DNA of 64,000 nucleotides from NCBI GenBank assembly GCA_903884535.1, contig CAISEZ010000018.1, positions 9,482 through 73,481 on the forward strand. The letters are read 5' to 3'. This document shows positions 1 to 43,327 of the stretch, piece after piece. The position numbers and the translations under genes are program-made. A model generated the notes under the pieces. It did not search any database, was not told the origin of the DNA, and was given only the letters and a program-made list of their open reading frames with translations. This DNA is from an uncultured Verrucomicrobia subdivision 3 bacterium. Its GTDB lineage: Bacteria > Verrucomicrobiota > Verrucomicrobiia > Limisphaerales > UBA11358. How positions within the stretch are numbered: the stretch's first letter is position 1; each line of letters begins with the position of its first letter.

Positions 1-1
1 T

Positions 2-607
2 TCGGTTTATGGCTGTCTTTCCTATGGCATCTTTTTGCCCGCAGCTTCTTCCTTCGGCTCACCGGGATATTCCACCCTCGTGGAAAGTTGCACCATCAAG
101 ACGGCAGGAGCAATTGGCATCCAGGCGGATACCGTCACCCACTGCACGGCCGTGGATTGTGGTAACACTGGTATTTCCGGCTCGTCGATTTCGGACAGTC
201 GCGGGGAAGCGGCCGGTATTGGCAGTGTCGGTCTTTCGGCCGTCAATGCTGAAAATTGTTACGGTGCCTGTTCGTCCACGAATCTGGGCTACGGCATATT
301 GACCATTCTGGCCAACAATTGTTCCGGTTATGCTGCCGGCGCAAGCAGCTACGCCATATTGGCGAACTCCACCGCCATTAATTGCTACGGCTACTGCACC
401 GGCACCAACGGCAATGGGATTTACGCCACCACGGCCAGCAATTGCCGGGGCTTTAGCACCAGCGGCAACGCGCTGAATATCATCGGCAGTGCCGTCGGTT
501 GTTATGGCCAGAGCACTTTTGGCACCGGCGTCAAAGCCACCGTGGCCAATGCGTGCGTGGTCGGCGGCGGCACCACCAACATCACCTACAAATACAACAT
601 GCCGTAG
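2..607 (+). CDS. NC(Y)G-repeat secreted beta-helix-like protein, paralog P0 (5' end outside window)
   Basis: The frame is open to the window start. It encodes G/S/T/A/N-rich 18-19 aa repeats, each with xNC(Y/S/R)G. The C-terminus TNITYKYNMP is the same type as paralog 5952..7049. Confidence 0.7.
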   Translation, partial: SVYGCLSYGIFLPAASSFGSPGYSTLVESCTIKTAGAIGIQADTVTHCTAVDCGNTGISGSSISDSRGEAAGIGSVGLSAVNAENCYGACSSTNLGYGILTILANNCSGYAAGASSYAILANSTAINCYGYCTGTNGNGIYATTASNCRGFSTSGNALNIIGSAVGCYGQSTFGTGVKATVANACVVGGGTTNITYKYNMP

Positions 608-649
608 TAGCCGTCCTCGACTCACGAATCATAAATAAACAAAGCCATT

Positions 650-1855
650 ATGAAAAACCAACTCGCCACCCTGTTGATGCTCGCAACCCTAAACTGCCAA
701 CTCTTGCTTGTCCGAGCGCAAGGCGTGCTCACGCCGCCGGGCGCACCGGCACCGATGATGAAATCGCTCGACCAGATTGAGGCGCGCACGGCCATCACCA
801 ATACGAGCAGTCTGGTGACCATTTCGCAGCCAGGTTCATATTACCTGACGCACAACCTCACCGTCAGCAGCGGCGATGCGATTGACATCACCACCAACGA
901 CGTAACGCTGGACTTGAACGGATTTACCATTTTCTCAACCGCCGCCAGCGCCGCCGGCACCGCCATCAATCTCAACAACCCGGCCACCAACTCCGACATC
1001 ACAATTTTCAACGGGCACATCAAGAGCGGCGTGACCACCAATGTTGACGGAGTTTATACCGGTTCCGGTTTTGCCAACGGCATCAGCTATGCGGGCGGCG
1101 CACCGGCCAACGTGCGGGTGAGCGGCATTTCCGTGATGGGGGTTTTGACTCATGGCATTAACCTTTGGCTTGGCGCTTCAACGTCGGCCGAAGCCTGCAC
1201 CGTGTGGACGGCGGGCGGATATGGGGTGGTCGCCACCACCATCAGGGCGTGCCTTGCGATCGCTTGTGGAAACACCGCTATCTGGGGCTATCAGGTGACC
1301 GACAGTCAGGGTCAAAGCGCCAGCGGTTTTGCTGGTGTTAGCGCAGAGGAGGCAAAGAATTGTTATGGTTCGAACGGCACCAGCTTTGGCATCAATTCTT
1401 TCATCGCTCAGAACTGTTACGGCACCAGCGTCAACGGCCAGGGTATAAATGCCGTCACCGCGTTGAACTCTTATGGTTCCGGCGGCAGCCCTGGTGGACT
1501 TTATTGCACCACCGCACAAAATTGCCAAGGCCTAAGCGGCAGCGGCATAGGTCTCAGCGCCACCACGGCGCAGAACTGCTATGGTTCCAGCTACAGCAGT
1601 TATGGCCTTAACGCCAACACGGCGCAGAACTGCTATGGCACCAGCACCACCAGTATTGGTCTCTATGCGAATATGGCGCAAAACTGTTACGGTAGCGGTG
1701 GAACCTATGGCATTAATGCCCCCTTTGTAGCCACAAGCTGCTATGGCTACGGCACCACCAATGCCGGCGTATTGGCGTTTATTGCCAATAGCTGCCATGG
1801 CGGCACCTCCACCGGCACGGCTTTGAACACGACGCATAACGTGAACTCCTACTGA
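650..1855 (+). CDS. NC(Y)G-repeat secreted beta-helix-like protein, paralog P1
   Basis: 401 aa with an ATGAAAAAC start and a signal peptide ending VRA-QG. It has the conserved LTPPGAPAPMMKSLDQIE module, a GSYYLT..NVTLDLNGFTI core, 9 NC(Y)G-type units and the C-terminus HNVNSY. Confidence 0.8.
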   Translation: MKNQLATLLMLATLNCQLLLVRAQGVLTPPGAPAPMMKSLDQIEARTAITNTSSLVTISQPGSYYLTHNLTVSSGDAIDITTNDVTLDLNGFTIFSTAASAAGTAINLNNPATNSDITIFNGHIKSGVTTNVDGVYTGSGFANGISYAGGAPANVRVSGISVMGVLTHGINLWLGASTSAEACTVWTAGGYGVVATTIRACLAIACGNTAIWGYQVTDSQGQSASGFAGVSAEEAKNCYGSNGTSFGINSFIAQNCYGTSVNGQGINAVTALNSYGSGGSPGGLYCTTAQNCQGLSGSGIGLSATTAQNCYGSSYSSYGLNANTAQNCYGTSTTSIGLYANMAQNCYGSGGTYGINAPFVATSCYGYGTTNAGVLAFIANSCHGGTSTGTALNTTHNVNSY

Positions 1856-1900
1856 TGAATTTTTGATTAACAATTTTCGATTTACGGAATCAAACCACCC

Positions 1901-2686
1901 ATGAAAAACAAAACCCTCATCACGGCTGTCTCTACATTCTTCCTTCTACATTCGGCCTTTGCCTTTGAGGGCCGCATTCAAGTCACGCTCACGCGCGGAG
2001 GCCAGCCGGCCAACCTGCTTTACACGGCGGGCACCAATTATTTGCGGGTGGAAAATACCGTCACCAACTGGCCGAACCCGGTGGATTTGCTGGATCGCAG
2101 TTCCGGCGCACTGACTCTACTTTTCCCCAACAACCGCAGCTTCGTGCATTTGCCGCCTGCCGCTCTGACACCCGCACCTGGCGCAATGCCCATGCCGATG
2201 CCACCACCCGCCTTGCCTGCGGGCACCTCGGTCACGCCGCCACCCGGCGCACCGGCGATGCCACAGATGCCCCAAATGCCGCAGATGCCCGCCGCCGGTG
2301 GAATGCCGATGATGCCAATGGAGCAACCGGAACTTAAAGCCACCGGTGAAACCACCAATCTTCTCGGTTATGCTTGCACCGGTTACGAAATCAAGCAGCG
2401 CGGCGAGACAATGGAAGTCTGGGCTACGGATCAGTTGTTACCTTTCCAGCCCTATGTGCAAAACCAGCCGCATCGTTTCGGCCCGCAGATGATCGAGGAA
2501 CAATGGGCGGAACTGGTCAAGGCCAAGAAGCTGTTCCCGTTGCTGGCCACCTTGAAGTTCGACAATGGAATGGAACATTTCCGGTTCGAGGTCAAGGCCG
2601 TCACGCCGCAGACATTCACGGAAAAAGATGCCGCACTGTTTCAACCGCCGCCGGAGTATCTGGAAATCCAGCCGCTGCCGTTTTAA
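1901..2686 (+). CDS. secreted DUF4412-like protein with a Pro/Met-rich linker
   Basis: 261 aa with a signal peptide (FFLLHSAFA-FEG). The pattern FEGRI..T.....N...Y..GTNYLRVE and ELKATGETTNLLGYACTGYEI...EVWAT resembles DUF4412 from memory. There is a PMPMPPP..MPQMPQMPQMP low-complexity segment. Confidence 0.6.
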   Translation: MKNKTLITAVSTFFLLHSAFAFEGRIQVTLTRGGQPANLLYTAGTNYLRVENTVTNWPNPVDLLDRSSGALTLLFPNNRSFVHLPPAALTPAPGAMPMPMPPPALPAGTSVTPPPGAPAMPQMPQMPQMPAAGGMPMMPMEQPELKATGETTNLLGYACTGYEIKQRGETMEVWATDQLLPFQPYVQNQPHRFGPQMIEEQWAELVKAKKLFPLLATLKFDNGMEHFRFEVKAVTPQTFTEKDAALFQPPPEYLEIQPLPF

Positions 2687-2726
2687 CCAATGAAGAATTA
2701 CGAATCAGAATGAAGAAAATAAAACC

Positions 2727-3769
2727 ATGAAAACCAACCACGCCAAACTCATACTCGTCACCGCTGTCACAATTTCCGCTTTCCGCTTTCCGCCTTTTCG
2801 CAAGGCGTCCTCACGCCGCCGGGCGTGCCGGCACCGATGATGAAGTCGCTCTCGCAAATCGAGCCGCGCACACCGATCAACACGTTGCCGGGCGACGGAG
2901 GCTATGATCTTTACTACATCTCGCAATCCGGCTCGTATTATCTGACCACCAACATTGTGGTCGCCAGCGGCACCAATGGGATTGGAGTCGGGGCCAGCGA
3001 CGTGGTGATAGACCTCAACGGGTTCACCCTCTCCGGCACGGCGAGCAGAATTGCGATCCGGTCCACCGCGAATCTGGGCCGGGTGCGGATCTGCAACGGC
3101 CAGCTCACCGGCTGGTCGGGCGGGCTGGATTTTTACGTCAATGGAACCGGGACTAACCTCACCCTCGAAAACGTGCAAATGACGCTGACCAACGGCGGCG
3201 CAGGATTGTTCGCCGGGGTCGGATGCGGCGACGGATTGAGTCTCGCACATTGCACCATTTCCGGCGCAAGCGGGCCGTCCAGCTATGCCGTTTTGGCGGG
3301 CGACCGCTGCACATTCGAAGCCTGCACCCTGTTCGGCTGTAATTATGGAATTGACGCCGGTTCCACTATCACGGTCAAGGACTGCACCATCAAAAACTGT
3401 TCCGGTGGGGAAGGTATTTTTGTGAGCAACACTAGCATCCTCCTCAACAACCTTCTGGACGGATGCAAAATGGGCATGACCTTCCACAACGCCTGCATGG
3501 TTAGTCAAAACACCTGCCAGAATGCCACCGGCAACGGATTTAATATTAGCGGCAACTACAACCGCGTGGAGGATAACGTGTCTATTGGAAATGCCTTTTT
3601 CGGTTTCATTTCCCAAGGGGTGACCACGAACAATCTGGTGATTCGGAACCTGGCACGCGGAAACAGTTCGGGGAATTATGCCCTGAACAGCACCGATGCC
3701 GTCGGCCCCATTATTACCACATCCGGCACCATCACCAATTTGAATCCTTGGGCGAATTTTTCCTATTAA
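2727..3769 (+). pseudogene. paralog P2 (beta-helix C-terminal variant), frameshifted inside the signal-peptide heptamer tract
   Basis: ATG 2727 opens MKTNHAKLILVTAVTISAFRFP, homologous to the P5 leader, but stops at 2838..2840. The mature part (SQGVLTPPGVPAPMMKSLSQIEPRTPI.., to 3769) is in the +2 frame. The offset equals one missing 7-nt unit. Confidence 0.65.
2773..2793 (+). repeat. (TTTCCGC)x3 heptanucleotide tandem repeat
   Basis: Read directly. Three perfect units are followed by CTTTTCG CAAGGC. Confidence 0.9.
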
Positions 3770-3785
3770 CCCAACCCGCAACAGC

Positions 3786-4921
3786 ATGAAAACTAAAACT
3801 CTATTCTACTCCGTCATCGTTTCTGCCTTCTGCCTTCTGCCTTCTACCTTCGGGCAAGGAGTCTTGACGCCGCCGGGCGCGCCGGCGGCGGGGATGAAAT
3901 CACTCGCGCAGATTGAGCCGCGCACGCCGATCTCCGCCGCGCCGTTCACCATCTCGGCGGGCGGCTCGTATTATCTGACGACCAATCTCACCGTCAGTGC
4001 CGGCGATGCCATCACCATTGCCGCCGACAACGTGACGCTGGATTTGAACGGCTTCACCATCCGTTCCACCGCCGCCAGCGCGACGGGCCCGGCATTTTGC
4101 TCAATGGCGGTTTGAGGAACCTCACCCTCGCCAACGGCTTCATCCAAGGTGGCGTGACGAACAACGGCAGCGGCGTTTACAGCGGCGGCGGCTTTGCCAA
4201 CGGCATTTATTTTTCCGGCAATGCGCCGTTGAATGTGCTGGCGTCCCGCCTCTCGATTTCCGGCTGCTCGGTTTACGGCATCTATCTCCTTAATGGCAAT
4301 TCGACCGTGGTGGAAGCCTGCGCGGTGCGGACGGTGGGCGGTTATGGCATCGTTGCTTCCACCATCAAAAGTTGCGCGGCGATGGATTGCGGGAACACTG
4401 CCATCTATGGCGATGAGGTTTCGGATAGTCGCGGGCAATGTTCCGGCAGCAGCTCCGGCCTTTACGCCATCACCGCGCAGAACTGTAACGGCTACAGCGG
4501 CAGCGGCTCCGGCCTTGTCGCCACCACCGCGCAGAACTGTTACGGCCAAAGCACCAGCGGCGACGGCTTGGACACCACCACTGCGCAGAACTGTTATGGC
4601 CAAAGCACCAGCAGCTACGGCCTCTCCATCGGTGGCAACGCGCTGAACTGTTACGGCGTCAGCACCAGCGGCTACGGCCTTTATGCCATCGCCGCACAGA
4701 ACTGTTCCGGCTACAGCAGCGGCAATGGCGATGGCATTTACACCACCACCGCGCAGAACTGTTACGGTTACAGCGGCGGAACTGGCATCGGCCTGTTTGC
4801 TTCCAAGACCGCCAGTGGCTGCTATGGCTACTGTCTTTCCGGCACGGGGCTGTCGGCGTTCATCGCTAATTCCTGCTCCGGCACTTCCTTGAACGTGACG
4901 CATAATCTCAACTCCTACTGA
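3786..4921 (+). pseudogene. paralog P3, split by a 1-nt frameshift near 4092-4096
   Basis: ORFs 3786..4115 and 4097..4921 together reconstitute a full paralog (..STAASATGPA / (I)LLNGGLRNLTLANGFIQGGVTNN..). Sister P5 has GCC ATT TTA where P3 reads GCATTTTG. Confidence 0.7.
3821..3848 (+). repeat. (TTCTGCC)x3 + TTCTACC heptanucleotide tandem repeat
   Basis: Read directly. It encodes FCLLPSA.. of the P3 signal peptide. Confidence 0.9.
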
Positions 4922-4952
4922 TGAATTTATGATTCACCGAATCCAACCACCT

Positions 4953-5894
4953 ATGAAAACCAAAACCTTCCTCACCGCGTTTGTTTCATCCTTCATCCTT
5001 CAGCAATCCGCCTTCGGGCAAGGGGCTTTGACGCCGCCCGGCGCGCCCGTGGCGACAATGAAATCGCTCGACCAAATTTATGCGAAACTGGACGCGCGCA
5101 TTCCCATCACCAACAGTGCCAGCTTGGTGACGATTTCCCAGCCCGGCTCGTATTATTTGACGACCAATGTCACCGTCAGTTCCGGCAATGCCATCACCAT
5201 TGCCGCCGGCAACGTGACGCTGGACTTGAACGGCTTCACCATTGCTTCTACCGCCGCCAGCGCGGCGGGCTATGCCATCTTGATGGGCAGCGTGACGAAT
5301 GTTTCCATTTACAATGGGAACATCAGCAGCGGCGTGACGAACAGCGCCGCCGGCGTGTTTGGCGGCGGCGGCTTCGGCTACGGCATTTATAATTCTGGAT
5401 TTTCCTACAATGTGCGGGTGAAGTCGGTGTCCGTCGCGGGCGCGTTAACTTATGGAATTTATCTCGGCCAGGGCAACTCCACGGTGGTGGAAGCCTGCTC
5501 GGTCAATGTGGCGTCCACTTATGGAATTTATGCCGACAGTGTGTCCGATTCGACGGCGGTGAATTGTGGAAACTGTGGCGTCTTTGCCCACGCGGCGCAC
5601 AATTGCACAGGCTACGGCGTGGGCAGCGGCACCGGGCTGTATGCTAACACCGCCAACAACTGTTTCGGCTACAGTGCCGGGAGCGGTGCCGGGCTGAATG
5701 CGAGCATCGCCAACAACTGTTACGGCTACAGTTCCGGGAACGGCTACGGGCTGTATGCCGGCTCAGTGGCGACGGGCTGTTACGGTTACAGTCTCAACGG
5801 CACGGGGCTGTCTGCCTTCCTTGCCAGTGTCTGCCACGGAGAATCCATCTCCGGCACGGCCCTCATCACGTCGCACAACGTGAACTCGTTCTGA
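4953..5894 (+). CDS. NC(Y)G-repeat secreted protein, paralog P4
   Basis: The ATG at 4953 (MKTKTFLTAF..) is chosen by homology to the other leaders; the ORF opens at 4929. It has the conserved LTPPGAPVATMKSLDQI module, 5 NC-type units and the C-terminus HNVNSF. Confidence 0.8.
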   Translation: MKTKTFLTAFVSSFILQQSAFGQGALTPPGAPVATMKSLDQIYAKLDARIPITNSASLVTISQPGSYYLTTNVTVSSGNAITIAAGNVTLDLNGFTIASTAASAAGYAILMGSVTNVSIYNGNISSGVTNSAAGVFGGGGFGYGIYNSGFSYNVRVKSVSVAGALTYGIYLGQGNSTVVEACSVNVASTYGIYADSVSDSTAVNCGNCGVFAHAAHNCTGYGVGSGTGLYANTANNCFGYSAGSGAGLNASIANNCYGYSSGNGYGLYAGSVATGCYGYSLNGTGLSAFLASVCHGESISGTALITSHNVNSF

Positions 5895-5951
5895 ACCATT
5901 TAGGATTTACGATTGCCGATTTACGATTTGAAAATTAAACCAAGGAAAATT

Positions 5952-7049
5952 ATGAAAACCAACCTTACAAAGCTCACCCTTGTCGTCGCCATGGCGCTTT
6001 CCGCTTTCCGCTTTCCGCTTTCCGCTTTTGCCCAAGGCACGCTCACGCCGCCGGGCGCGCCGGCGGCGGGGATGAAATCGCTGGCGCAAATCGAGCCGCG
6101 CACGCCGATCTCCGCCGCGCCCTTCACCATTACTGTGCCGGGGTCGTATTACCTGACCACGAATCTCACCACCACGGTGAGCAATGCCATAGTGATACTC
6201 ACGAATGGGGTGACGCTGGATTTGAGCGGATTCACGCTGACCTCGACCGTGGCCAACGCGGCCAATGGCGGCACGGCCATTTTATTGGGCAGCGGTCTGA
6301 GTGACATCACGATAGGCAACGGCCACATCCGCAGCGGCGTGACGAACAACGGCGGCGGCGTTTACAGCGGCGGCGGGTTTGCCTACGGAATTAGTTGGAG
6401 TGGCAATCCGCCGCAGAATGTGCTGGCATCCCGCGTCTCGGTGGTTGGCTGCCTGAATCATGGCATTGCTTTGAACAATGGCAATTCAACGGGGGTGGAA
6501 GCCTGCATGGTGCGGACGGTGGGGAGCATTGGCATCATGGCTTCCACCATCAAAAGCAGCTCGGCGGCGGATTGCGGAGGCTCGGCCATCTATGGCGATG
6601 AGGATTCCGATTGTATCGGGCAAAGTTCCGGCGGCGGCTACGGCATTTACGCCTTCACCAGCGCGCAGAGCTGTTACGGCACCAGCGGCAGCAGCTACGG
6701 CCTTTATGCCATGACGGCAGAGAACTGTTACGGCATCAGTAGCACCGGCACCGGTATCCAAGCCCGCTCCGCGGCGAATTGTTACGGCTCCACCGTCAGC
6801 GACTACGGCATTTCCACCTACATCGCGCTAAACTGTTGTGGCAACAGCACCGGCACCGGTCTATACGCCCTTCTATCAGCCAGCGGCTGTTATGGTCAAA
6901 GTGCTCTAGGCACGGGGTTGTATGCCTTAAATGCCAGCTTTTGCACGGGCAACGTCTCTGGCGGCACGGCCATCCGAGCCACCATGGCTACCGGCTGTAG
7001 CGCCTTTATCGGCACCAACATCATCACCTACAAATACAACATGCCGTGA
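5952..7049 (+). CDS. NC(Y)G-repeat secreted protein, paralog P5
   Basis: The ATG at 5952 (MKTNLTKLTLVVAMALSAFRFPLSAFA-QG) is preceded by AAGGA. It has the conserved module, about 7 Cys-containing units and the C-terminus IITYKYNMP. Confidence 0.8.
   Translation: MKTNLTKLTLVVAMALSAFRFPLSAFAQGTLTPPGAPAAGMKSLAQIEPRTPISAAPFTITVPGSYYLTTNLTTTVSNAIVILTNGVTLDLSGFTLTSTVANAANGGTAILLGSGLSDITIGNGHIRSGVTNNGGGVYSGGGFAYGISWSGNPPQNVLASRVSVVGCLNHGIALNNGNSTGVEACMVRTVGSIGIMASTIKSSSAADCGGSAIYGDEDSDCIGQSSGGGYGIYAFTSAQSCYGTSGSSYGLYAMTAENCYGISSTGTGIQARSAANCYGSTVSDYGISTYIALNCCGNSTGTGLYALLSASGCYGQSALGTGLYALNASFCTGNVSGGTAIRATMATGCSAFIGTNIITYKYNMP
5998..6025 (+). repeat. (TTTCCGC)x4 heptanucleotide tandem repeat
   Basis: Read directly. 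It encodes LSAFRFPLSA of the P5 signal peptide. Confidence 0.9.
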
Positions 7050-7081
7050 ATCAACAAATGCAGAATGAAGAAACCAAAACT

Positions 7082-8170
7082 ATGAAAACTCAACTTAATC
7101 TCGCCGTCCTTGCGCTGCTGCTGGCAACCGGCAACCGGCAACTTTCAACCTTGCACGCGCAGGGCGTGCTCACGCCGCCCGGCGCGCCGGCTGCGGGGAT
7201 GAAAACGCTGGCGCAAATCGAACCACGCACACCTATCTCCGCCGCGCCGTTCACCATTTCGACGGCTGGCTCGTATTATTTGACGACCAACCTCACCGTA
7301 AGTGTGGGCAATGCCATCACCGTCAGCGCGAACAACGTGACGCTGGACTTGAATGGCTTCACCCTGGCCTCGACGGAAACGCCGGCGGGAAGCAGCATTG
7401 GCATTTCCTTGAACTCGGTGACGAACACCACCATCGCGCATGGCTGCATCAGCAGCGGCGTGACCAATAGCGGCGGTATTTATGGTGGCAGCGGCTTTGG
7501 TTCCGGCATTTATTATTTAGGCTTGGCGCCGGTCAACGTGCGCGTCTCGGGCGTTTCGGTTTCGGGCTGCCGAGTGAACGGTATGTTTCTCGGCACCAGT
7601 TCGGTGGTAGAATTCTGCACAGTCAACACCATGGGAAATTTTGGCATCGTTGCCGAAACTGTTTCGGACTCGCTGGCACAAAATTGCGGGAACACTGCGG
7701 TGTATGCCTACGGCAATGCCAATAACTGTTTTGGCTACGCTTCCGGCAGCGCCAACGGCGTGTATGCCAACGCCGCAAATAACTGCTATGGCACCAGTTC
7801 CGGCGGCAGCGGCTTGGCGGCCAGCATTGCCAACAACTGCTATGGCTACACGGCCAGCAATAATAACGGCTTGTCGGCCACCGTCGCCAACAATTGTTTT
7901 GGTCAAAGTGCCAATGGCAACGGCATTTCGGCCACGGCGGCTACCGGCTGTTATGGGCAATCGGATGCTGGCCTCTACAGTGGCGTGCTGGCCAGCACGG
8001 CCAATAACTGCGTTGGCTACAGCTACGGCGGCGGCTATGGACTCTATGCCTATTACATCGCCAATGGCTGTTATGGCTACAGTGCCAGCGGCACGGGTCT
8101 CAATGCGTTGATTGCCAGTGTCTGTCATGGCTCGACGCTCTCGACCAGTCATAGCGTCAATTCCTTTTGA
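7082..8170 (+). CDS. NC(Y)G-repeat secreted protein, paralog P6
   Basis: The ATG at 7082 opens MKTQLNLAVLALLLATGNRQLSTLHA-QG. It has the conserved module, 8 NC-type units and the C-terminus HSVNSF. Confidence 0.8.
   Translation: MKTQLNLAVLALLLATGNRQLSTLHAQGVLTPPGAPAAGMKTLAQIEPRTPISAAPFTISTAGSYYLTTNLTVSVGNAITVSANNVTLDLNGFTLASTETPAGSSIGISLNSVTNTTIAHGCISSGVTNSGGIYGGSGFGSGIYYLGLAPVNVRVSGVSVSGCRVNGMFLGTSSVVEFCTVNTMGNFGIVAETVSDSLAQNCGNTAVYAYGNANNCFGYASGSANGVYANAANNCYGTSSGGSGLAASIANNCYGYTASNNNGLSATVANNCFGQSANGNGISATAATGCYGQSDAGLYSGVLASTANNCVGYSYGGGYGLYAYYIANGCYGYSASGTGLNALIASVCHGSTLSTSHSVNSF
7123..7150 (+). repeat. GGCAACC GGCAACC GGCAACT TTCAACC heptad-periodic tract
   Basis: Read directly, inside the P6 signal-peptide coding region. 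Confidence 0.75.
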
Positions 8171-8238
8171 TGAAATCTTGATAAATTCGCCGACTAAAAA
8201 CGCCATTCTCCAATTTAGAAACCCCAGCAAACAAAACT

Positions 8239-9666
8239 ATGAAAACAAAAAACTTCATCCTCGGCTTCGTTTCTGCCTTCTGCCTTCTGCCTTCTGCATT
8301 CACTCACGCCGCCACGACCATCAGCGCCGTGAACCGTTATGCCTATGCCGCGAATCTCGGCTGGATGGACTGGCGCGGCGACACCAACAACGGTGCCGTC
8401 ATTAATGCGACCTATTGTTCCGGCTCAATCTATGCCGCCAACGTCGGCTGGATCAGTTTAGGCGCCGGCACGCCCACCAATGGCGTGCAATACCAGAACC
8501 TTTCCGCCAATGACTACGGCGTGAACGTGGATGCCTTCGGCAACCTGCGCGGCTTTGCCTACGGCGCAAATATCGGCTGGATCAATTTTGAGACCAACGG
8601 CGCGGCCGCCGTGGATTTCGGCTCCGGCAACCTGACTGGTTATGCCTACGGCGTGAACGTCGGCTGGATCAGCTTGAGCAACGCCGTGGCCTATGTGCAA
8701 ACCGCGCCGCTGGCTCCGCCCAACGACCTCTGCGCCGGGGCCATTGCGCTCACCAACGGTGCCAGCTATGCCATGAGCACGGTGACCGCCACCACCAATG
8801 GCGATCCGACGTTGCCATGCCTCACCCTCTTTGGCAAAGGCGTCTGGTTCACTTACACGCCGTTGCTCACCGGCAATGTCACCATTAGCACTTGCGGCAG
8901 CAGTTTTGACACCGCGATGGCGGTTTATACCGGCACTTGCGGCGCCATGACCGCAGTTGCTTGCGATGATGATAATGGTCCTTCCTGTTCCGGCGTCAAC
9001 GCCAGCGTGACCTTCTCCGGCACGGCGGGTGTAACTTACTCCATTCTGGCGGGCGGCTATAATTCGGCCAACGGCAACTTGAGCATCGTCGCCACTTCGC
9101 CTTCCAACGACCAGTGCGCCGGTGCCTTGGCCCTCGCGGACGGCGTGCCGTTCACGATGGGCACGACCAACGCCACTTCCACCGGCGATCCATCGCCAGC
9201 CTGCGTGGGCAGTTTTGGCAAGGGCGTCTGGTTCACCTACACGGCCCCGGCCAGCGGCGACGTGTATATCAGCACCTGTGGCAGCAGTTATGACACCGCG
9301 ATGGGAGTTTACACCGGCGGTTGCGGCGCGTTGAGCCAAATTGCCTGCAATGATGACAGCGGACCGAATTGCGCGAGTTTGCAGGCCAGCGTGCATCTGG
9401 TCGCCACCGGCGGGACTACCTACTACATCCTTGCGGGAGGTTATGGCAGCAGCAGCGGCCTTCTAACCGTCGAGGCCTATCTTGTGCCGGCGCTCAATGT
9501 CATTGGCTCGGCCGGCACCCTGACAGTCACCTGGCCCGGCAATGGCACCTTGCAGTCCGCCACGAATCTGCTCCCGGTAATCAACTGGACCGATTTAACG
9601 AATGGCGGCGGCCTCTGGTCCGAACCCATGACCAACCCGGCGAAATTCTTCCGCATTAAAAAATAG
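8239..9666 (+). CDS. secreted protein with four GW(I/M) repeats, two Cys-rich ~135-aa modules and an FFR C-terminal module
   Basis: 475 aa with signal peptide SAFCLLPSAFTHA. Repeats are ANLGWMDW, ANVGWISL, ANIGWINF and VNVGWISL. Two duplicated modules read ND.CAGA..L....T.AT..GDP...C...FGKGVWFTYT..G.V.ISTCGSS.DTAM.VYTG.CGA....AC.DD.GP.C. Confidence 0.8.
   Translation: MKTKNFILGFVSAFCLLPSAFTHAATTISAVNRYAYAANLGWMDWRGDTNNGAVINATYCSGSIYAANVGWISLGAGTPTNGVQYQNLSANDYGVNVDAFGNLRGFAYGANIGWINFETNGAAAVDFGSGNLTGYAYGVNVGWISLSNAVAYVQTAPLAPPNDLCAGAIALTNGASYAMSTVTATTNGDPTLPCLTLFGKGVWFTYTPLLTGNVTISTCGSSFDTAMAVYTGTCGAMTAVACDDDNGPSCSGVNASVTFSGTAGVTYSILAGGYNSANGNLSIVATSPSNDQCAGALALADGVPFTMGTTNATSTGDPSPACVGSFGKGVWFTYTAPASGDVYISTCGSSYDTAMGVYTGGCGALSQIACNDDSGPNCASLQASVHLVATGGTTYYILAGGYGSSSGLLTVEAYLVPALNVIGSAGTLTVTWPGNGTLQSATNLLPVINWTDLTNGGGLWSEPMTNPAKFFRIKK
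8271..8298 (+). repeat. (TTCTGCC)x3 + TTCTGCA heptanucleotide tandem repeat
   Basis: Read directly. It is the same unit and the same left flank (CGTTTCTGCC) as 3821..3848. Confidence 0.9.
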
Positions 9667-9776
9667 GCGACAAGAATGCTGGTTTGGCTGTCGGCTTGTA
9701 AAGAAATCCACCTGGCAGAAATGACCAACTTCGAGTTCACTCATGTCCGCGTTGTATTGTCGCTGTCCAATCGAGT

Positions 9777-10922
9777 ATGCTGCGGCACATGATTCATGAT
9801 GTTCAAGCCATCGCGGCGGAAGTGATTCGGAAAACCGGCAAGGACAAGCCGGCGGACGCGGCGTTGCGCGAGGTGCTCAAGCAGATCAAAGATCTCGCGC
9901 CCTTCGACGCAACGGAAATCGCCAAGACCGTTTTTCTGTATTACCGTTGGCACGTTTGGTTGCGCGAAGAACGCGGCGTGGAAAACAAGATGCGTTTTGC
10001 CATCCGCTTGAACCAACGCTTTCAGGCGAACAACGCCAGTGTGCCCATCGCCGAGCTACGCGCCAATGCCGTGCCCGTGTGGACAGCGTCGGAAATGGAC
10101 GTCACCGATGAATGGTTGCTCACCTTGCAACGCGAACCGAAATTGTGGCTGCGCGCCAAACGCGGCACGGCGGACTCGCTGGCACGGACGCTGTTCGCGG
10201 CGGATGTGAGTCCGCTGCTGCCGGAGGCAATTTTGTATCGTGGCGAGGAAGATTTGTTTAAGACGCCGGAATTTCACGCGGGCGAATTTGAAATCCAAGA
10301 CATCGCATCGCAACTGGTGGGCATGCTCTGCGCGCCGCAGCCGGGCGAGACGTGGTGGGACACGTGCGCCGGCGAAGGCGGTAAGACGCTCCACCTGTCC
10401 GACCTGATGCAAAACAAAGGTATGCTCTGGGCCAGCGACCGCGCGGAATGGCGGCTGACCAAGCTCAAGCGCCGGGCCGGGCGGGCGAAAGTTTTCAATT
10501 ATCGGTCGGCGCACTGGGACGGTGGCGCGAAGTTACCGACAAAAACAAAGTTTGACGGCGTGCTCGTGGATGCGCCGTGCAGTGGCATCGGCACGTGGCA
10601 GCGCAATCCGCAGGCGCGCTGGACCACCGAGCCGAACGATGTGCGCGAGCTTTCTGCAATTCAAAAAAAACTTTTGGCCAATGTTGCGCCGAGTTTGAAG
10701 CCAGGTGGTAAATTGATTTATTCCGTGTGCACGCTGACGCGCGCTGAATCCACGGAAGTCGTGGACGATTTCAATTCAAAGTTCGCGGCAGAATTTGAGC
10801 CGATGGAACTGGCGGCGACCGCTTCTGGCGGTCAGCAGACTGACGCCACAAAAACGATCTGGCCGCAAGATTTGGGCGGGAACGGAATGTTTATCGCGGG
10901 TTGGCGGCGGAAGAAAATTTAG
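9777..10922 (+). CDS. RsmB/NOP2/Sun-family RNA (cytosine-C5) methyltransferase
   Basis: 381 aa. Motifs WWDTCAGEGGKT, DAPCSGIGTWQRNPQARW and YSVCTL are typical of the family. Confidence 0.8.
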   Translation: MLRHMIHDVQAIAAEVIRKTGKDKPADAALREVLKQIKDLAPFDATEIAKTVFLYYRWHVWLREERGVENKMRFAIRLNQRFQANNASVPIAELRANAVPVWTASEMDVTDEWLLTLQREPKLWLRAKRGTADSLARTLFAADVSPLLPEAILYRGEEDLFKTPEFHAGEFEIQDIASQLVGMLCAPQPGETWWDTCAGEGGKTLHLSDLMQNKGMLWASDRAEWRLTKLKRRAGRAKVFNYRSAHWDGGAKLPTKTKFDGVLVDAPCSGIGTWQRNPQARWTTEPNDVRELSAIQKKLLANVAPSLKPGGKLIYSVCTLTRAESTEVVDDFNSKFAAEFEPMELAATASGGQQTDATKTIWPQDLGGNGMFIAGWRRKKI

Positions 10923-11728
10923 CGCGCCGATTCCAAAATCTTGGCGAGGATTTTTTGGATGTCCTCGTTGTGTTGTTGCGATGCTTTGCCAAAGGCTTGA
11001 ACAATGTCGAGCAGGAACCCGGCATTGGCGGAGTTGAATTCGTAGAGCACAGTTTCCTTGGACTTCGCTTTCGCGGGCGGGCGCGGCGTTCCATCCGGCA
11101 ACAAAACGTCCGTCATGGGGATGCAAACGTAAACCATCGCCTGATAACCGACCGCGCGCTGCTTTTGCTTGAGCTGAATTTGCACCGAGCCGTGCGGCGT
11201 GGTTTTGGTGAATTGCGGCAACCGCTGCACCACACTTTGAAATCCATCTGCCGACGAATTGGTCGAAACCTCGACTTGCACGGGCTGGCTTTCTTCAAAT
11301 TCGGCCGGCCGAATTTTTTTTAATGCCTCGATTTCATGAAGCAGGTCGTTGGTCGAAATCAGTCCCAGCCGGACCGCTTCAAAAATGATCTTCGAAAGTT
11401 CGTGACCGTATTTGGTTTCGCCTTTGCGTGTGAACTTGATTTCGGGAACATCCGTGATGTCCTTCGCGTCGGGCGTGTCGTAACCGATCTGCCATTCGAG
11501 GTAATGCTTTCTACCGAGTGAAACTTTTGACGGCGCAACCGGAATGCCGAAACCGTCCACAGTTTTTTCCTTCACGCGCACCTTGCCGGTCACGTCGGTG
11601 AGCGGCAGACGAACGCGCACGGCGTTGGTCAGCGTTTCAACGCGGACGAGTTTGTATTCCGCATCGGCGCAAAACGCACGAAACGTCAGGCAAAACAAGG
11701 CGAACAGAATGACGAAATTCTTTCGCAT
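10919..11728 (-). CDS. hypothetical secreted protein
   Basis: The internal ATG at 11728 gives MRKNFVILFALFCLTFRAFC-ADAE, a signal peptide. I recognise no family. Confidence 0.55.
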   Translation of the reverse strand: MRKNFVILFALFCLTFRAFCADAEYKLVRVETLTNAVRVRLPLTDVTGKVRVKEKTVDGFGIPVAPSKVSLGRKHYLEWQIGYDTPDAKDITDVPEIKFTRKGETKYGHELSKIIFEAVRLGLISTNDLLHEIEALKKIRPAEFEESQPVQVEVSTNSSADGFQSVVQRLPQFTKTTPHGSVQIQLKQKQRAVGYQAMVYVCIPMTDVLLPDGTPRPPAKAKSKETVLYEFNSANAGFLLDIVQAFGKASQQHNEDIQKILAKILESAR

Positions 11729-11738
11729 GGCAAAAACG

Positions 11739-14288
11739 TCAACTTTCCGGTCGCACGATGGAAATGACCAGCGCGTCGGACTTGAGATATTTTTGTGCGG
11801 CGGCTTTGGCCTGTTCGAGCGTGACAGCTTCGTATTTCGCGTCGTCGAGGTCGCCGTGCTGCCAGCCCAAGCCGTAAAGTTCATCCAGCGCGCTCGTGGT
11901 CGCGAGGTTGCCGAGATCCTGCCGGGAAATTTTTTTCTGGCCGATGATTTTTGCCTTGGCGCGCTTTAATTCCTCGGCCGTCAAACCTTCCGTGCGCAAC
12001 AGTTTCGCTTCTTTGAGCAATTCCGTTTCCACCTGCGCGGCCTTGGTCGGCTCCGTGCCGGTGTAAAACGCAAAATAACCGGGCATCAGGCCGGCGAAAT
12101 TCTGCGCGCCGACGTAATACGCCAACCCAAGCTGGTCGCGGATGCGCAAAAACAGCCGCGAGCCTAGGTCGCTGCAGCATTCCTGCAAAATATCCAGCGC
12201 ATAGCGGTCGTCGCTGTGCAGCGTCGTGCCGGGAAAACCTATGACCAGCACCGCCTGTTTTTTGTCGCGGACTTCGTGAACGCGTTGGACTGAGTTGATG
12301 ACCGGCATTTTATGATGCTCGGTTTTTGTCCCACCCGGATTCGCCTTCCAATTGCGGAACGCTTTTTCCACGGCGGCTTTCACGTCTGCCACCTTCACGT
12401 CGCCAAAAATCGCCAGCACGCAATTATTCGGCACGGCAAATTTTTGGTGAAATTCTTTCAAGTCCGCCGGCGTTAACTTCGTGATGGTTTCTTCCGTGCC
12501 AAGGGAATCGAGGCCGTAACCAATATTGCCAAACAAGGCACGGCGCATCGCCAGGCTGGCGCTCTTGAGCAACTCATCCTTGCGCGCCTGAATGCTCGCG
12601 ACCTGCAACTCGATCTCGCGTTCCAGCTCGTCGGCGGGGAAAACCGGATTCAAGATGACGTCCGCCAGCAGGCCGAGGCCAGTGGCGAAATCGCTGCTCA
12701 ACACTTCCGCGTTCACACCAAAACTATTGTTGCCGCCGTAGCTGTCAATGTGGCCGCCGACCGATTCGATTTCCGTCGCAATCTTTTCCGCATCGCGTGT
12801 CGTGGTGCCTTTGATGAGCAACTTGGCCAGCAGCATCGTCGCGCCGTTGTTCGCCGCCGTCTCGGCGAGAACGCCGCCCTGAAACACCGCGCGAAATTCC
12901 ACAAACGGCAGGCGAGAATCTTCCTTCACGAGCAGTTTCAAGCCATTCGGCAGTTCGATTTTCTGAATGGCATTGTCCGTATTCGTCTCGACGTTCGCCT
13001 TGGCTTTGGGCGCGCTGTCCTTCGGCAAGAGCGCGTAAAGCGTGCGGTTTTCCGCCGTGAGATACTGCCGCGCGACGCGCTGCACATCCGCGCTGGTGAT
13101 GCGCTTGACGGCGGCGAGATAGCGCTCGGAAAAATTCAGATCATTTGCGGCGAGCCAGTTGCCGCCGAGATTTTGCGCCTGACCTTCCATCGTCTTGCGC
13201 GACGACAACGTGGCGGAAACAAATTGTTTCAGCGCCTTTTGTAATTCGTCGGACGTGATCGAATGGGTTTGGATTTTAACAATCTCCGCCAGCATTGCGT
13301 CGCAGGCCGTTTCGAATTTGTCGCCATCCGCGACCGCACTCATGCCAAACAAGCCCGAGCTGCCGGGATTGTAAGTCCACGCGTCCACATGATGCACCAC
13401 GCCAAGTTTCTCGCGCACATTTTGGAACAGGCGCGAACTGCGACCGCTGCCGAGCAGCACGGCCAGCACGTCGAGAATCGGCACGTCGGCATGCCGCAGC
13501 TCCGGGATGTGCCACGCGAAATGAAAATGTCCCATCTCAATCGCGGCTTCCTCAATGATTTCGCGCGCCGCGGTCTGCTTCGGTTCCAGCGGCAAAACGA
13601 CCGGCGGCATCGCTCGCGCTTTGGTGTTCGCGTAAGATTTCTTGATTTGCGCTACGACGTCATCGTTCTTCACATCCCCAGCGACGACGTAAAAGACATT
13701 GTTCGGCGCATATTTTTCCGTGTAATAATCGCGGATGTCCGCCGGCTTGAGTTCGTTGAAAATGTCGAGGTAGCCAATTATCGTAAAGCGATACGGACTT
13801 TTCGTGTAGGCGACTTCAAACAGGCGGCGGCTGGCGCGGCGGCTGGGATCGTCCTGACCCATGTCCATTTCGCGGCGGATCACGTCGAGTTCCTTCGCCA
13901 GTTCCTCCGGCGGCAAGGACGCGTGCTGCATGATGTCGCACAAAATATCAATTGCCGTCGTTGCGCCGGTGTTCGGCACATCAATGTGATACACTGTGCG
14001 GTCAAAGCTCGTGTAGGCGTTCATGTAACCGCCGGCTTCCTGCACTTCCTGGTCAATGCGGCTGCCGGGGCGCGTCGTCGTGCCCTTGAACAGCATGTGT
14101 TCCAACACGTGCGAGAGCCCGGCGCCGAGCCATTTATCCTCGTGAATGCTGCCGGCCATCGCCCACGCCTGAGCTGATACGACCGGCGCGCTGTGATCTT
14201 CGCGCACAATAATAATCAGGCCGTTGTCGAGCGTCGTGAGTTTGACGCCGGGCGGGACGGACGGGATGCTGGTAAAATCTTTTGTCAT
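11739..14288 (-). CDS. M16 (pitrilysin/insulinase) family zinc peptidase, double-unit
   Basis: 849 aa. It has the HxxEH motif (LSHVLEHMLFKGT) and two M16 active/inactive repeats. Confidence 0.9.
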   Translation of the reverse strand: MTKDFTSIPSVPPGVKLTTLDNGLIIIVREDHSAPVVSAQAWAMAGSIHEDKWLGAGLSHVLEHMLFKGTTTRPGSRIDQEVQEAGGYMNAYTSFDRTVYHIDVPNTGATTAIDILCDIMQHASLPPEELAKELDVIRREMDMGQDDPSRRASRRLFEVAYTKSPYRFTIIGYLDIFNELKPADIRDYYTEKYAPNNVFYVVAGDVKNDDVVAQIKKSYANTKARAMPPVVLPLEPKQTAAREIIEEAAIEMGHFHFAWHIPELRHADVPILDVLAVLLGSGRSSRLFQNVREKLGVVHHVDAWTYNPGSSGLFGMSAVADGDKFETACDAMLAEIVKIQTHSITSDELQKALKQFVSATLSSRKTMEGQAQNLGGNWLAANDLNFSERYLAAVKRITSADVQRVARQYLTAENRTLYALLPKDSAPKAKANVETNTDNAIQKIELPNGLKLLVKEDSRLPFVEFRAVFQGGVLAETAANNGATMLLAKLLIKGTTTRDAEKIATEIESVGGHIDSYGGNNSFGVNAEVLSSDFATGLGLLADVILNPVFPADELEREIELQVASIQARKDELLKSASLAMRRALFGNIGYGLDSLGTEETITKLTPADLKEFHQKFAVPNNCVLAIFGDVKVADVKAAVEKAFRNWKANPGGTKTEHHKMPVINSVQRVHEVRDKKQAVLVIGFPGTTLHSDDRYALDILQECCSDLGSRLFLRIRDQLGLAYYVGAQNFAGLMPGYFAFYTGTEPTKAAQVETELLKEAKLLRTEGLTAEELKRAKAKIIGQKKISRQDLGNLATTSALDELYGLGWQHGDLDDAKYEAVTLEQAKAAAQKYLKSDALVISIVRPES

Positions 14289-28886: not shown

Positions 28887-30311
28887 TTAATGCGCCAGCC
28901 ATGACACGCCAAGCTTCAAAAGCTTTTGCACAGCGGCATCGGACTTCGCCTCGGCATAAATTCGCAGGACCGGCTCGGTGCCGGAACCGCGCAGCATCAA
29001 CCACGCCGAATCGGCGGCGATGAATTTCACCCCGTCGCGCGCATCCACTTTTACCAGCGGCGACTGCAGAAGTTTTGTTGGTGGATTCCGTTTAAGCGAT
29101 TCCATGAGCGCAGTGCGCTTTTCCACCGGATACGGCGCGTCAAACCGCGCGTAGCGATGCGGACCAAAATACTTCTCCAGGTTTGCCCAGAGCTGATTCA
29201 CTGAGATTTTTTCCATCGCCAGCATTTCGAGCAGGAACAATCCGGCCGCCAAACCGTCGCGCTCGGGAATGTGATTCGCAAAGCCAACCGAACCGCTTTC
29301 TTCCGCGCCGAATAGCGCGCCGGTTTTCATCAATTCCGGCGCGATAAAGCGGAAGCCGATGCCGACTTCCGTGAGCGGCAGGTTCCACGCTGCGCACATT
29401 TTGTCCACCATCGCCGTGGTGTTGAACGTCTTCGTCACCGTGCCGCGACCGCCGCGATTGCGCACGAGATGATGCAGCAGCAACGCGATGACCTGCTGGT
29501 TGGTCAGCGGTTCACCGCGCCCATCCATCGCGCCAATGCGGTCGGCATCACCGTCGGTGACGAGGCAGATGTCGTGCGGATTGTTCCGCAACTGCGCGCC
29601 GCCGAGGGCGTAATTTTTCGGCAACGGCTCCGGACTAATCCCCCCGAATAAAATATCGTGCGCGCCATTGAGCGTGGTGACGGTGCAATTCGTTTTGGCC
29701 AGCAGCGTTTCAAACACGCCCGCGCCGACGCCGAACAGTGCGTCATGCGCCACGCGCAATTTGGCTTTGGCAATGAGCTTGAAATCCACGAGTTGCTTGA
29801 TGGCGGCGAAGTGCGCCGGGCGGACATCTTGAACGGCAATTTCTAATTTTGACTTATTATTTTTGAAGGGCGGCGGATTTCGGTCCAAAAAACTTTCCAC
29901 GGCCGCGCACACCTCGGCGCTGCTGCTGCCGCCAAAATGCGACTTGAGTTTGAAGCCGTTGAAGATCGGTGGATTGTGACTGGCGGTGATCATTACGCCG
30001 CCGACGGCTTGGAGATTTTTCACCGCGAAGGAAACACTTGGCGTGGGCGTGGGCTCCGGCGTGAGGATGACTTGAAAATCATTCCCGACAAACACCTCGG
30101 CGGTGATTTGCGCGAAGCGGTCGGACAAAAACCGGCGGTCGTAGCCGACGACCACTTTTGGCTCGCGCCTGAAAATTTCTGATTTTGAATTTCCGATTTC
30201 CGATTTCCAGAAATCCGCCGTGGCCTGCGCGACGCGGGCGACGTTGGCAAACGTAAAATCTTCCGCGATGACCGCGCGCCAGCCGTCCGTGCCGAATTTG
30301 ATGGGTGCCAC
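28887..30311 (-). CDS. phosphoglucomutase/phosphomannomutase family protein
   Basis: 474 aa. It has the active-site motif TASHNPP and the Mg site DGDADR. Confidence 0.85.
   Translation of the reverse strand: MAPIKFGTDGWRAVIAEDFTFANVARVAQATADFWKSEIGNSKSEIFRREPKVVVGYDRRFLSDRFAQITAEVFVGNDFQVILTPEPTPTPSVSFAVKNLQAVGGVMITASHNPPIFNGFKLKSHFGGSSSAEVCAAVESFLDRNPPPFKNNKSKLEIAVQDVRPAHFAAIKQLVDFKLIAKAKLRVAHDALFGVGAGVFETLLAKTNCTVTTLNGAHDILFGGISPEPLPKNYALGGAQLRNNPHDICLVTDGDADRIGAMDGRGEPLTNQQVIALLLHHLVRNRGGRGTVTKTFNTTAMVDKMCAAWNLPLTEVGIGFRFIAPELMKTGALFGAEESGSVGFANHIPERDGLAAGLFLLEMLAMEKISVNQLWANLEKYFGPHRYARFDAPYPVEKRTALMESLKRNPPTKLLQSPLVKVDARDGVKFIAADSAWLMLRGSGTEPVLRIYAEAKSDAAVQKLLKLGVSWLAH
30189..30209 (+). 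repeat. ATTTCCG ATTTCCG ATTTCCA heptamer tract inside the PGM-family gene
   Basis: Read directly. On the coding (-) strand it gives WKSEIGNSKSEIF. Confidence 0.85.
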
Positions 30312-42713: not shown

Positions 42714-43253
42714 ATGAGCAAACCCGAAGCTGAAACGCCCCAGCCTGAAGCCGCCGCCGCGCCCACGCCCGAGCAGATCGCGGAATTGCAGGCGCGCGCC
42801 GCCAAGGCCGATGAAAACTGGGAGCGCCTGCTCCGCACCACCGCGGACTTCGACAATTTCAAGAAGCGCGCCGCACGGGAAAAAATTGAGGCCGGCCATT
42901 ACGCCAGCGCCTCCCTGCTCCAGAAATTGCTGCCCATCCTGGACAATTTTGAGATGGCGCTCGCCGCCGCGCAGAGCGCCAAAGGCGACAAGCTCGCGTC
43001 ACTCTCGACCGGCGTGACGATGATCCAGCAGCAGTTGAAAAACGCGCTTGCCGAAACCGGTCTCGAAGAAATTGAAACCGCCGGCCAACTGTTTGATCCC
43101 CACCTGCACGAGGCCGTTTCTCAGATGGAAACCAAGGAAGTTCCCGAAGGCCACGTCGCCCAGCAGCTCCGCAAAGGTTACAAGCTCAAAGAGCGTTTGC
43201 TCCGGCCCGCCACGGTCGTCGTCGCCAAACTGCCGGCGGAGAATTCAAAATGA
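42714..43253 (+). CDS. grpE: nucleotide exchange factor GrpE
   Basis: 179 aa. It has DNFKKRAAREK and a C-terminal ..GYKLKERLLRPATVVV. Confidence 0.95.
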   Translation: MSKPEAETPQPEAAAAPTPEQIAELQARAAKADENWERLLRTTADFDNFKKRAAREKIEAGHYASASLLQKLLPILDNFEMALAAAQSAKGDKLASLSTGVTMIQQQLKNALAETGLEEIETAGQLFDPHLHEAVSQMETKEVPEGHVAQQLRKGYKLKERLLRPATVVVAKLPAENSK

Positions 43254-43305
43254 AAAATGCAAAATTAAAAACCGGCGGCGGCGCTTTCCGCGATTTTGCA
43301 TTTTT
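43253..43305. promoter_or_regulatory. 13-bp perfect inverted repeat between grpE and dnaJ
   Basis: AAAAATGCAAAAT (43253..43265) and ATTTTGCATTTTT (43293..43305) are separated by a 27-nt GC-rich spacer. Confidence 0.55.
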
Positions 43306-43321
43306 AATTTTTAATTTTTAA
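43301..43321 (+). repeat. (TTTTTAA)x3 heptamer repeat immediately upstream of dnaJ
   Basis: Read directly. It ends 6 nt before ATG 43328. Confidence 0.85.
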
Positions 43322-43327
43322 TTTTTC

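Follow-up and report, generated by a model that had tools for sequence, protein, structure and literature searches.

Locus structure and reading frames of P2

The stretch of DNA analysed here (the window: 64,000 nucleotides (nt) of contig CAISEZ010000018.1 from an uncultured Verrucomicrobia subdivision 3 bacterium) starts with an array of co-directional, tightly spaced genes, in the order of a paralog cut by the window start, P1, a DUF4412 protein, P2, P3, P4, P5, P6, and P7. The gene P2 is distributed over two reading frames and contains a simple sequence repeat (SSR) of the heptanucleotide TTTCCGC. Its leader open reading frame (ORF; 2727..2840, +) starts at ATG 2727 and encodes the n- and h-region of a Sec-type signal peptide, followed by out-of-frame residues up to TGA 2838-2840 (translation MKTNHAKLILVTAVTISAFRFPPFRKASSRRRACRHR). 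Three repeat units that match each other at 100% lie inside this ORF at 2773..2793 (+) and form the variable element of the locus. The mature coding region (QGVLTPPGVPAPMMKSL.. to ..NPWANFSY), for which a right-handed parallel beta-helix is predicted, occupies 2801..3769 (+) and is read in the +2 frame with respect to ATG 2727. CAAGGC, which encodes its Gln-Gly, is found at 2801, 74 nt past the ATG, and the frame, which reads ..FRFPLSAFSQGVLTPPGVPAPMMKSL.., is open until 3769 without internal stop (ORF 2825-3769, 314 amino acids (aa)). At 2837..2842 (+), an ATGATG that encodes Met-Met in the mature frame shares bases with the TGA of the leader frame (ATGA), which is a possible re-initiation point for a product without signal peptide; gene callers start a truncated 310-aa protein from this Met-Met at 2837. 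The initial annotation of this DNA, which was made from the sequence alone, had described the same ATG, repeat tract, stop codon, and 314-codon frame to 3769, and all of these coordinates are borne out by our reading.

That annotation had further proposed that P2 is shorter by exactly one heptamer than P5, an in-frame paralog of 365 aa (5952..7049, +) with a homologous leader. P5 carries (TTTCCGC)x4 at 5998-6025, measured by Tandem Repeats Finder as 4.9 copies of CGCTTTC at 5995-6028 with 100% matches, and its CAAGGC at 6033 lies 81 nt past the ATG, compared with 74 nt in P2. Since the distances from the ATG to the tract (46 nt) and from the tract to CAAGGC (7 nt) are equal in both genes, the difference is indeed exactly one unit. 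Adding one unit to P2 in silico gives MKTNHAKLILVTAVTISAFRFPLSAFSQGVLTPPG.., the counterpart of ..LSAFRFPLSAFAQGTLTPPG.. in P5. The description of the two genes as sisters holds for the leader plus ~130 N-terminal residues (50% identity) but not for the C-terminal beta-helix parts, which are unrelated in sequence; the closest full-length paralog of P5 is P3 (59%).

Three- and four-unit alleles in sister metagenomes

The data are the stratified-lake metagenomes of Buck et al., sequenced as Illumina 2x150 reads and assembled with Megahit (PMC8121793), which were later re-assembled by others. The 310-aa truncated P2 product, which starts with MMKSL, is found on many public contigs from sister metagenomes. 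Because a look-up through this truncated product is biased towards out-of-frame (OFF) alleles, the neighbouring DUF4412 protein was used as the query. Contig 5u5rygOE (sample ERZ1426845) has the gene order of the window and an identical DUF4412 neighbour, P2 is called there from the position of ATG 2727 as a protein of 349 aa, and the downstream genes are all displaced by +7 nt relative to the window. The 90% cluster of the truncated P2 likewise includes a 349-aa member (P0122), present on four contigs, whose sequence is exactly the predicted product of a four-unit gene, starting MKTNHAKLILVTAVTISAFRFPLSAFSQG. At the DNA level, the loci L009 and L010 contain (TTTCCGC)x4 within an otherwise ~99.9% identical context. 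Three units are present in 12 loci (L001-L007, L011, L013-L016) that come from several assembly pipelines, including Logan unitigs, and two of these, L006 and L011 (82-kb scaffold, sample SAMEA6873001), match the window at 100% identity and are probably its source. With 12+5+1 contigs carrying the truncated 310-aa call, at least 18 OFF contigs stand against four with the in-frame (ON) allele.

As the 7-nt unit is not a multiple of 3, three units lead to the stop at 2838-2840 and four to the 349-aa precursor P0122, and whether signal peptide and mature protein of P2 share one frame depends on the number of units. The mature protein of the OFF allele is identical to that of the ON protein, and the OFF allele carries no further lesion; ON and OFF alleles of P2 that differ by a whole unit are found between close genomes and coexist in the natural population on the same background of single-nucleotide polymorphisms (SNPs). 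The earlier expectation that one added TTTCCGC would restore a full-length secreted protein is realized in sequence by P0122 and by the four-unit DNA, and the comparison of tract length across related assemblies that was proposed as a check has recovered both the three-unit and the four-unit allele.

Upstream of 2648, before the last ~35 nt of the DUF4412 gene, both four-unit loci (positions 1-46 of L009 and 1-59 of L010) diverge completely from the window; the C-terminus of their DUF4412 protein differs (..LIYFDAVSNQTLDPREYLEIQPLPF), and the sequence downstream is 99.9% identical to the window. This junction may represent recombination, a second strain, or a chimeric contig. The P2 tract contains the start of one MEGAHIT contig (L012) and the P3 tract the end of a Logan contig (L005); the start of L012 weakly hints at a branch in the assembly graph and hence at heterogeneity within the sample. 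Gapped-pattern scans for the flanks of the P2 leader gave no match in GTDB representative genomes or in metagenome contigs of the Joint Genome Institute (JGI), and the representative genome of the species apparently lacks the P2 region.

In the protein clusters of P2 and P3, the OFF alleles (P0001, P0121, P0123, P0138, P0140) are annotated from a conserved internal Met (MMKSL../MKSLAQ..), and databases therefore contain signal-less "proteins" that are out-of-frame alleles. Five short calls (P0008-P0012; 312 aa, start MKTLQQIEPR) were considered as OFF alleles of other species and rejected: because the leader at the P0009 locus (L008) is in frame and repeat-free, these calls are start choices of the gene caller.

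Whole-unit variation at other heptamer tracts

Comparison of 15 loci with positions 1-8494 of the window revealed six differences, namely three SNPs, a 1-nt insertion or deletion (indel) at ~4088, the additional TTTCCGC in P2, and the loss of one TTCTGCC in P3 (L014 = GCA_903874325.1). Exact heptamer-unit indels in leader tracts thus make up two of the six variants over ~8.5 kb. One and the same SNP background (3444G/4088A/4511G) carries three tract states, P2x3/P3x3, P2x4/P3x3, and P2x3/P3x2. The leader of P3 (3786..4921, +) has TTCTGCC x3 (+TTCTACC) at 3821-3851, equivalent to x3.6-4.4 as copy number, and the change from three units (ON) to two (OFF) in L014 and in the P0138 and P0140 alleles shifts it out of frame. 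These OFF alleles are called from an internal Met, either as P0138 (342 aa, four contigs) or as P0140, in which the same unit loss is accompanied by a 3-nt deletion. In the window itself, P3 is split into ORFs of 109 aa and 269/274 aa by one A missing after GGGCCCGGC (~4085-4097; deletion ~4088); this A is present in ten sister loci, where P3 is intact with 378 aa. The deletion is real, as the independent assembly L013 shares it.

Length variation was also found at a non-coding tract, (ATTTTTA)x3.9 at 43300..43326 (+), which lies between grpE (42714-43253) and dnaJ (43328-44470) and ends 1 nt before the dnaJ ATG at 43328, so that the region where translation of a housekeeping chaperone gene starts contains a heptamer of variable length. 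A copy number of 3.9 was found in the window, L097, and L100 and one of 4.9 in L098, L099, and L101, while one further contig is 7 nt shorter before dnaJ as judged by gene spacing and apparently has 2.9 copies. Both DnaJ protein alleles occur with more than one tract length, and the three length alleles in all imply repeated events. Whole-unit differences were found at three of the seven examined heptamer tracts, between genomes whose remaining differences affect well under 0.1% of sites; since at least three tracts differ by whole units between near-identical genomes, these tracts behave as local indel hot spots. The P4 tract was invariant in 13 loci. For the paralog upstream of P1, called with 367 or 355 aa, a further tract switch was considered and discarded; its leader has no heptamer, and the calls reflect start-codon choice instead.

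Period-7 enrichment in the window and the protein family

Perfect tandem repeats of period 7 with at least 2.8 copies occur seven times in the 64-kb window, compared with none in 30 dinucleotide-preserving shuffles, and no other period above 6 has a perfect repeat of at least 2.8 copies in the window. Most leaders of the array have their own perfect heptamer tract. Only two period-7 tracts lie outside the array, the one in front of dnaJ (43300-43326) and one at 30189-30208 (minus). The latter, GGAAATC x2.9 on the coding strand, is situated in frame inside a phosphoglucomutase/phosphomannomutase-like gene (..ADFWKSEIGNSKSEIF..), where a single-unit change would inactivate a metabolic enzyme. 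As the remainder of the window consists of long unbroken ORFs, the assembly is not generally prone to frameshifts.

A bias towards period 7 is also seen in 80 homologous loci from other species, of which seven have perfect heptamer repeats (at least 2.5 copies) in the leader, versus three with period 4, one with period 5, and none with periods 6 and 8-11. When the 60 nt preceding the QG codons of these 80 homologs are compared with themselves, mean identity is highest at lags 7 and 14 (0.342), versus 0.221 at lag 7 in the mature region. Translated heptamer tracts can be recognised in leaders such as ..LLLSAFSFQFSAFSQG and ..LSTFNFQLSTCLAQG. All perfect-repeat leaders of representative genomes (7/7) are in frame. 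A multi-frame leader with two shifts in a long-read metagenome-assembled genome (L076) was taken as sequencing error or pseudogene and was not used as evidence.

Predicted product and the paralog array

P2 matches the Pfam family NosD (PF05048) with 26.1 bits, weakly but above the gathering threshold of 23.6, and the AlphaFold2 model of its mature part is an all-beta coiled beta-helix (predicted local distance difference test score 92.5, predicted template modelling (TM) score 0.90). Both the profile score and the predicted fold place P2 among the right-handed parallel beta-helix proteins (NosD PF05048 / Beta_helix PF13229). Foldseek matches to the model, with modest TM-scores, include phage tailspikes, alginate epimerases (AlgE/AlgG), polysaccharide lyases, NosD, and an adhesin, and on this modelled structure they would fix the fold class of P2 and no specific function. 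Protein searches returned more than 2000 relatives, the named ones being right-handed parallel beta-helix proteins of Verrucomicrobia. The N-terminal module that follows the signal peptide is widespread in Verrucomicrobiota (Limisphaerales/subdivision 3, Pedosphaera, Chthoniobacter) and also occurs in Phycisphaerae, Kiritimatiellia, and Lentisphaerae; it was not found in the viral contigs searched. A phage origin of the family was rejected, as viral contigs weakly match the generic beta-helix part and never the N-terminal module, and the proteins have Sec leaders.

The P proteins all end their signal peptide in ..A/F-x-A/G↓QG, continue with LTPPGAPAP.MKSL.QIEPRTPI, and then enter beta-helix sequence. 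The cleavage site AF[AS]↓QG is conserved across the paralogs and the leader is of the Sec type by sequence. The post-signal module QG.LTPPGAPAP.MK[ST]L.QIEPRTPI..PGSYYLT.N, which has no Pfam family, is common to all paralogs (650-8170; L017-L096) and may be an anchoring or sorting module; most paralogs finish on an aromatic residue (..NSY, ..NSF, ..NFSY). In P1, P3, P4, P5, and P6, the C-terminal part is built from tandem repeats of 54-57 nt (18-19 aa) with the pattern ..GxGLYAxTAQNCYGxS.. (e.g., 1553-1686, 4444-4777, 5625-5758), a Cys-containing beta-helix rung repeat unlike the NosD-like body of P2.

Among the other genes of the array, P1 (650..1855, +) has the same N-terminal module and a leader without heptamer tract, and the leader of the DUF4412 protein (1901-2686) has a 14-nt period. 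The leader tracts of P4 (4953..5894, +) and P6 (7082..8170, +; started by gene callers at ATG 7058) are TTCATCC x2.6 at 4985-5002 and GGCAACC x2.9 at 7123-7142, respectively. P7 (8239..9666, +) is an unrelated secreted protein with galactose-binding-like domains and a signal peptide that contains TTCTGCC x3.9-4.4 at 8271-8301. Though unrelated, P7 and P3 have the same TTCTGCC repeat and SAFCLLPSAF leader, which suggests cassette exchange between genes or repeated origin of the same heptamer. A consensus scan for promoters and terminators over positions 1-10000 returned nothing intergenic or informative. Downstream of the array, an ORF at 10919-11884 (minus), located beside an RsmB-like methyltransferase gene (9777-10922), is annotated in a sister contig with an R.Pab1-type restriction endonuclease domain (PF09522).

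A probable frameshift switch and its alternatives

We consider it likely that the three- and four-unit alleles of P2 represent a real SSR frameshift switch polymorphism, of which the window holds the OFF allele and sister populations the ON allele. P2 would then be a Sec-secreted right-handed beta-helix protein whose translation is gated by the TTTCCGC copy number at the end of the signal peptide (..SAFRFPLSAF..). With four units, and in principle also with one or seven, the ATG, the signal peptide, the AFS↓QG site, and the mature part would be in frame and give the 349-aa precursor, while with three units ribosomes from ATG 2727 would stop at TGA 2838-2840 after 37 codons and no protein would be exported. 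Units would most likely be gained and lost by slipped-strand mispairing during replication, which we infer as the mutational mechanism at the heptamer tracts in general. The polymorphism in the population suggests that the changes are reversible and occur at a rate above that of ordinary indels. An adaptive role could lie in varying proteins that are secreted or exposed on the surface, for example as a response to phage, to grazers, or to shifts in polysaccharide substrates.

Several observations weigh against such a switch, and some of them would fit an ordinary strain-level indel or incipient pseudogene, in which a rare 7-nt deletion inactivated P2 in most cells and the four-unit allele is the surviving ancestor, without meaningful switching. 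The P2 tract is short, and with 2-5 units (2.6-4.9 measured) the tracts in general fall below the length at which hypermutation is expected (typically at least 5-8 units), so that the switching rate per generation may be low; the caveat of the initial annotation that three to four units is a short tract for slippage remains valid. The OFF state is the majority allele (18 vs. 4 contigs), and the two P2 alleles were not seen together in one sample among the collected contigs. P5, which has the longest tract (4.9 copies), showed no OFF variant in about 20 contigs, which is unexpected if slippage alone set the allele frequencies and which selection for P5 expression could explain. P3 of the window haplotype is broken by a conventional 1-nt deletion, and decay other than by SSRs therefore also happens in this array. 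With their divergence upstream of 2648, L009 and L010 may stem from a recombinant strain or a chimeric contig, and as several assemblies share read sets, the independent samples with the ON allele are perhaps only two. We nevertheless regard the ordinary indel as rather unlikely. A fixed pseudogene, which the initial annotation had named as the alternative, is not supported because the three-unit allele has no second lesion and its mature sequence is the same as in the ON allele; the mature frame is open over 314 codons and an intact allele persists on four contigs. Moreover, whole-unit changes at three heptamer tracts compare with about four other variants in 8.5 kb, the three lengths of the dnaJ tract imply repeated events, and slippage, an inherently reversible process, has its signature in indels of exactly one unit at perfect repeats.

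Two further explanations have to be considered for a frameshift switch at P2, one of which concerns the data and the other translation. The 7-nt difference could be an artefact of a mis-assembled short tandem repeat or a consensus error; repeats can break assembly graphs, as the contig ends of L012 in the P2 tract and of L005 in the P3 tract indicate. We judge it extremely improbable, and effectively excluded as an assembly error, because both alleles recur over independent short-read assemblies and different pipelines. The tracts of 21-28 nt fit well inside single 150-nt reads and are far below the length of k=141 contigs, and L006 and L011 reproduce the window exactly. It is likewise very improbable that the three-unit gene is still expressed, whether by programmed -1 frameshifting of ribosomes on the U-rich tract or by termination and re-initiation at ATGA 2837-2840. 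The leader TGA does overlap the ATG of the mature-frame Met-Met and a CCU UUU C directly follows the P2 tract, but there is neither a canonical X XXY YYZ slippery site nor an evident stimulatory structure. A re-initiated P2 could not be exported because neither the signal peptide nor the beginning of the conserved N-terminal module would be present in it, and the ATGA overlap is probably incidental, as ATGATGA is part of the PMMKS motif that is conserved also in the in-frame paralog P1.

Relation to known phase-variable systems

Phase variation driven by SSRs is textbook biology of host-adapted pathogens. To our knowledge, it is hardly documented in uncultured, free-living environmental bacteria, and our literature search for SSR or heptamer phase variation in Verrucomicrobia or in bacteria of the Planctomycetes-Verrucomicrobia-Chlamydiae (PVC) group found no specific report. 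P2 follows the logic of SSR contingency loci and belongs to neither the Opa nor the HMW family. The closest analogy, which would be a functional one only, is provided by the opa genes of Neisseria with their CTCTT pentamer repeats in the signal-peptide coding region (reviewed in PMC3960869). In both systems the repeat lies within the leader-peptide coding sequence, its unit length is not a multiple of 3 so that the unit number sets the frame of the mature protein, and each of several paralogs has a tract of its own and can take the ON or OFF state regardless of the others, as P2 and P3 vary independently here. The unit here, however, has 7 nt instead of 5 and the tracts comprise 2-5 copies rather than about 7-28, the products are beta-helix proteins rather than the eight-stranded beta-barrels of Opa, and the organism is a free-living freshwater Verrucomicrobium rather than a host-restricted pathogen; on fold and repeat unit alike, P2 falls outside the Opa family.

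In Helicobacter pylori, oipA and related outer-membrane protein genes contain CT dinucleotide repeats in the 5' signal region (PMC10564699). There too, slipped-strand frameshifts in the signal-sequence region make the ON/OFF status strain-dependent, but oipA is a single gene of a pathogen with a dinucleotide repeat, in contrast to the heptamers of a paralog array. Heptanucleotide SSRs of Haemophilus influenzae comprise (TGAAAGA)n in the hmw1A/hmw2A promoter, an intragenic (AATTTTG)14 in hmw1A, and (AACAACC)n at a TonB-dependent receptor (PMC2651432, PMC8262952). As in the array, variable heptamers control adhesin or surface-protein expression there and frameshifting intragenic tracts have been described; the best-studied case is nevertheless transcriptional, acting through promoter spacing, while P2 would be controlled in translation, and the protein families differ. 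Characterised phase-variable SSRs are also usually much longer, with 13-38 heptamer units at hmw1A/2A and 8-38 for heptamer SSRs overall (PMC2651432). That heptameric SSRs are generally over-abundant in bacteria has been noted before, and polymerase slippage, favoured by how much DNA the active site holds, was tentatively offered as the cause (PMC4692102). The tracts described here share with these repeats the over-representation of period 7 relative to other long periods and the length variation among close relatives. They differ in that the known repeats are mainly intergenic, G-rich or of one family-specific sequence, and have not been linked to an ON/OFF frame, whereas the units found here are diverse (TTTCCGC, TTCTGCC, GGCAACC, ATTTTTA) and concentrated in signal-peptide coding regions.

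Implications

ON and OFF alleles that were predicted from a single sequence are thus both found in natural lake populations, as is whole-unit variation at a second paralog and at a non-coding tract. For annotation this is a warning that the 310- and 342-aa calls which begin at an internal Met represent OFF alleles rather than truly short proteins. The heptamer alleles provide a strain-resolved marker of fast evolution in Verrucomicrobiota, and P2 gives a functional consequence to the surplus of heptameric SSRs in bacteria that has long been noted without explanation. A broader idea, which we offer tentatively and consider possible though somewhat doubtful, is that heptamer microsatellites in signal peptides serve Verrucomicrobiota and their PVC relatives as a contingency system shared by the whole lineage, while tracts elsewhere tune housekeeping genes such as dnaJ. 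If true, this would account for the recurrent leaders of the SAFxFxLSAF and LNxQLST type, and free-living bacteria of freshwater and soil would thereby vary at random which members of their large beta-helix families are exported, for instance to evade phage or grazers or to try out polysaccharide niches.

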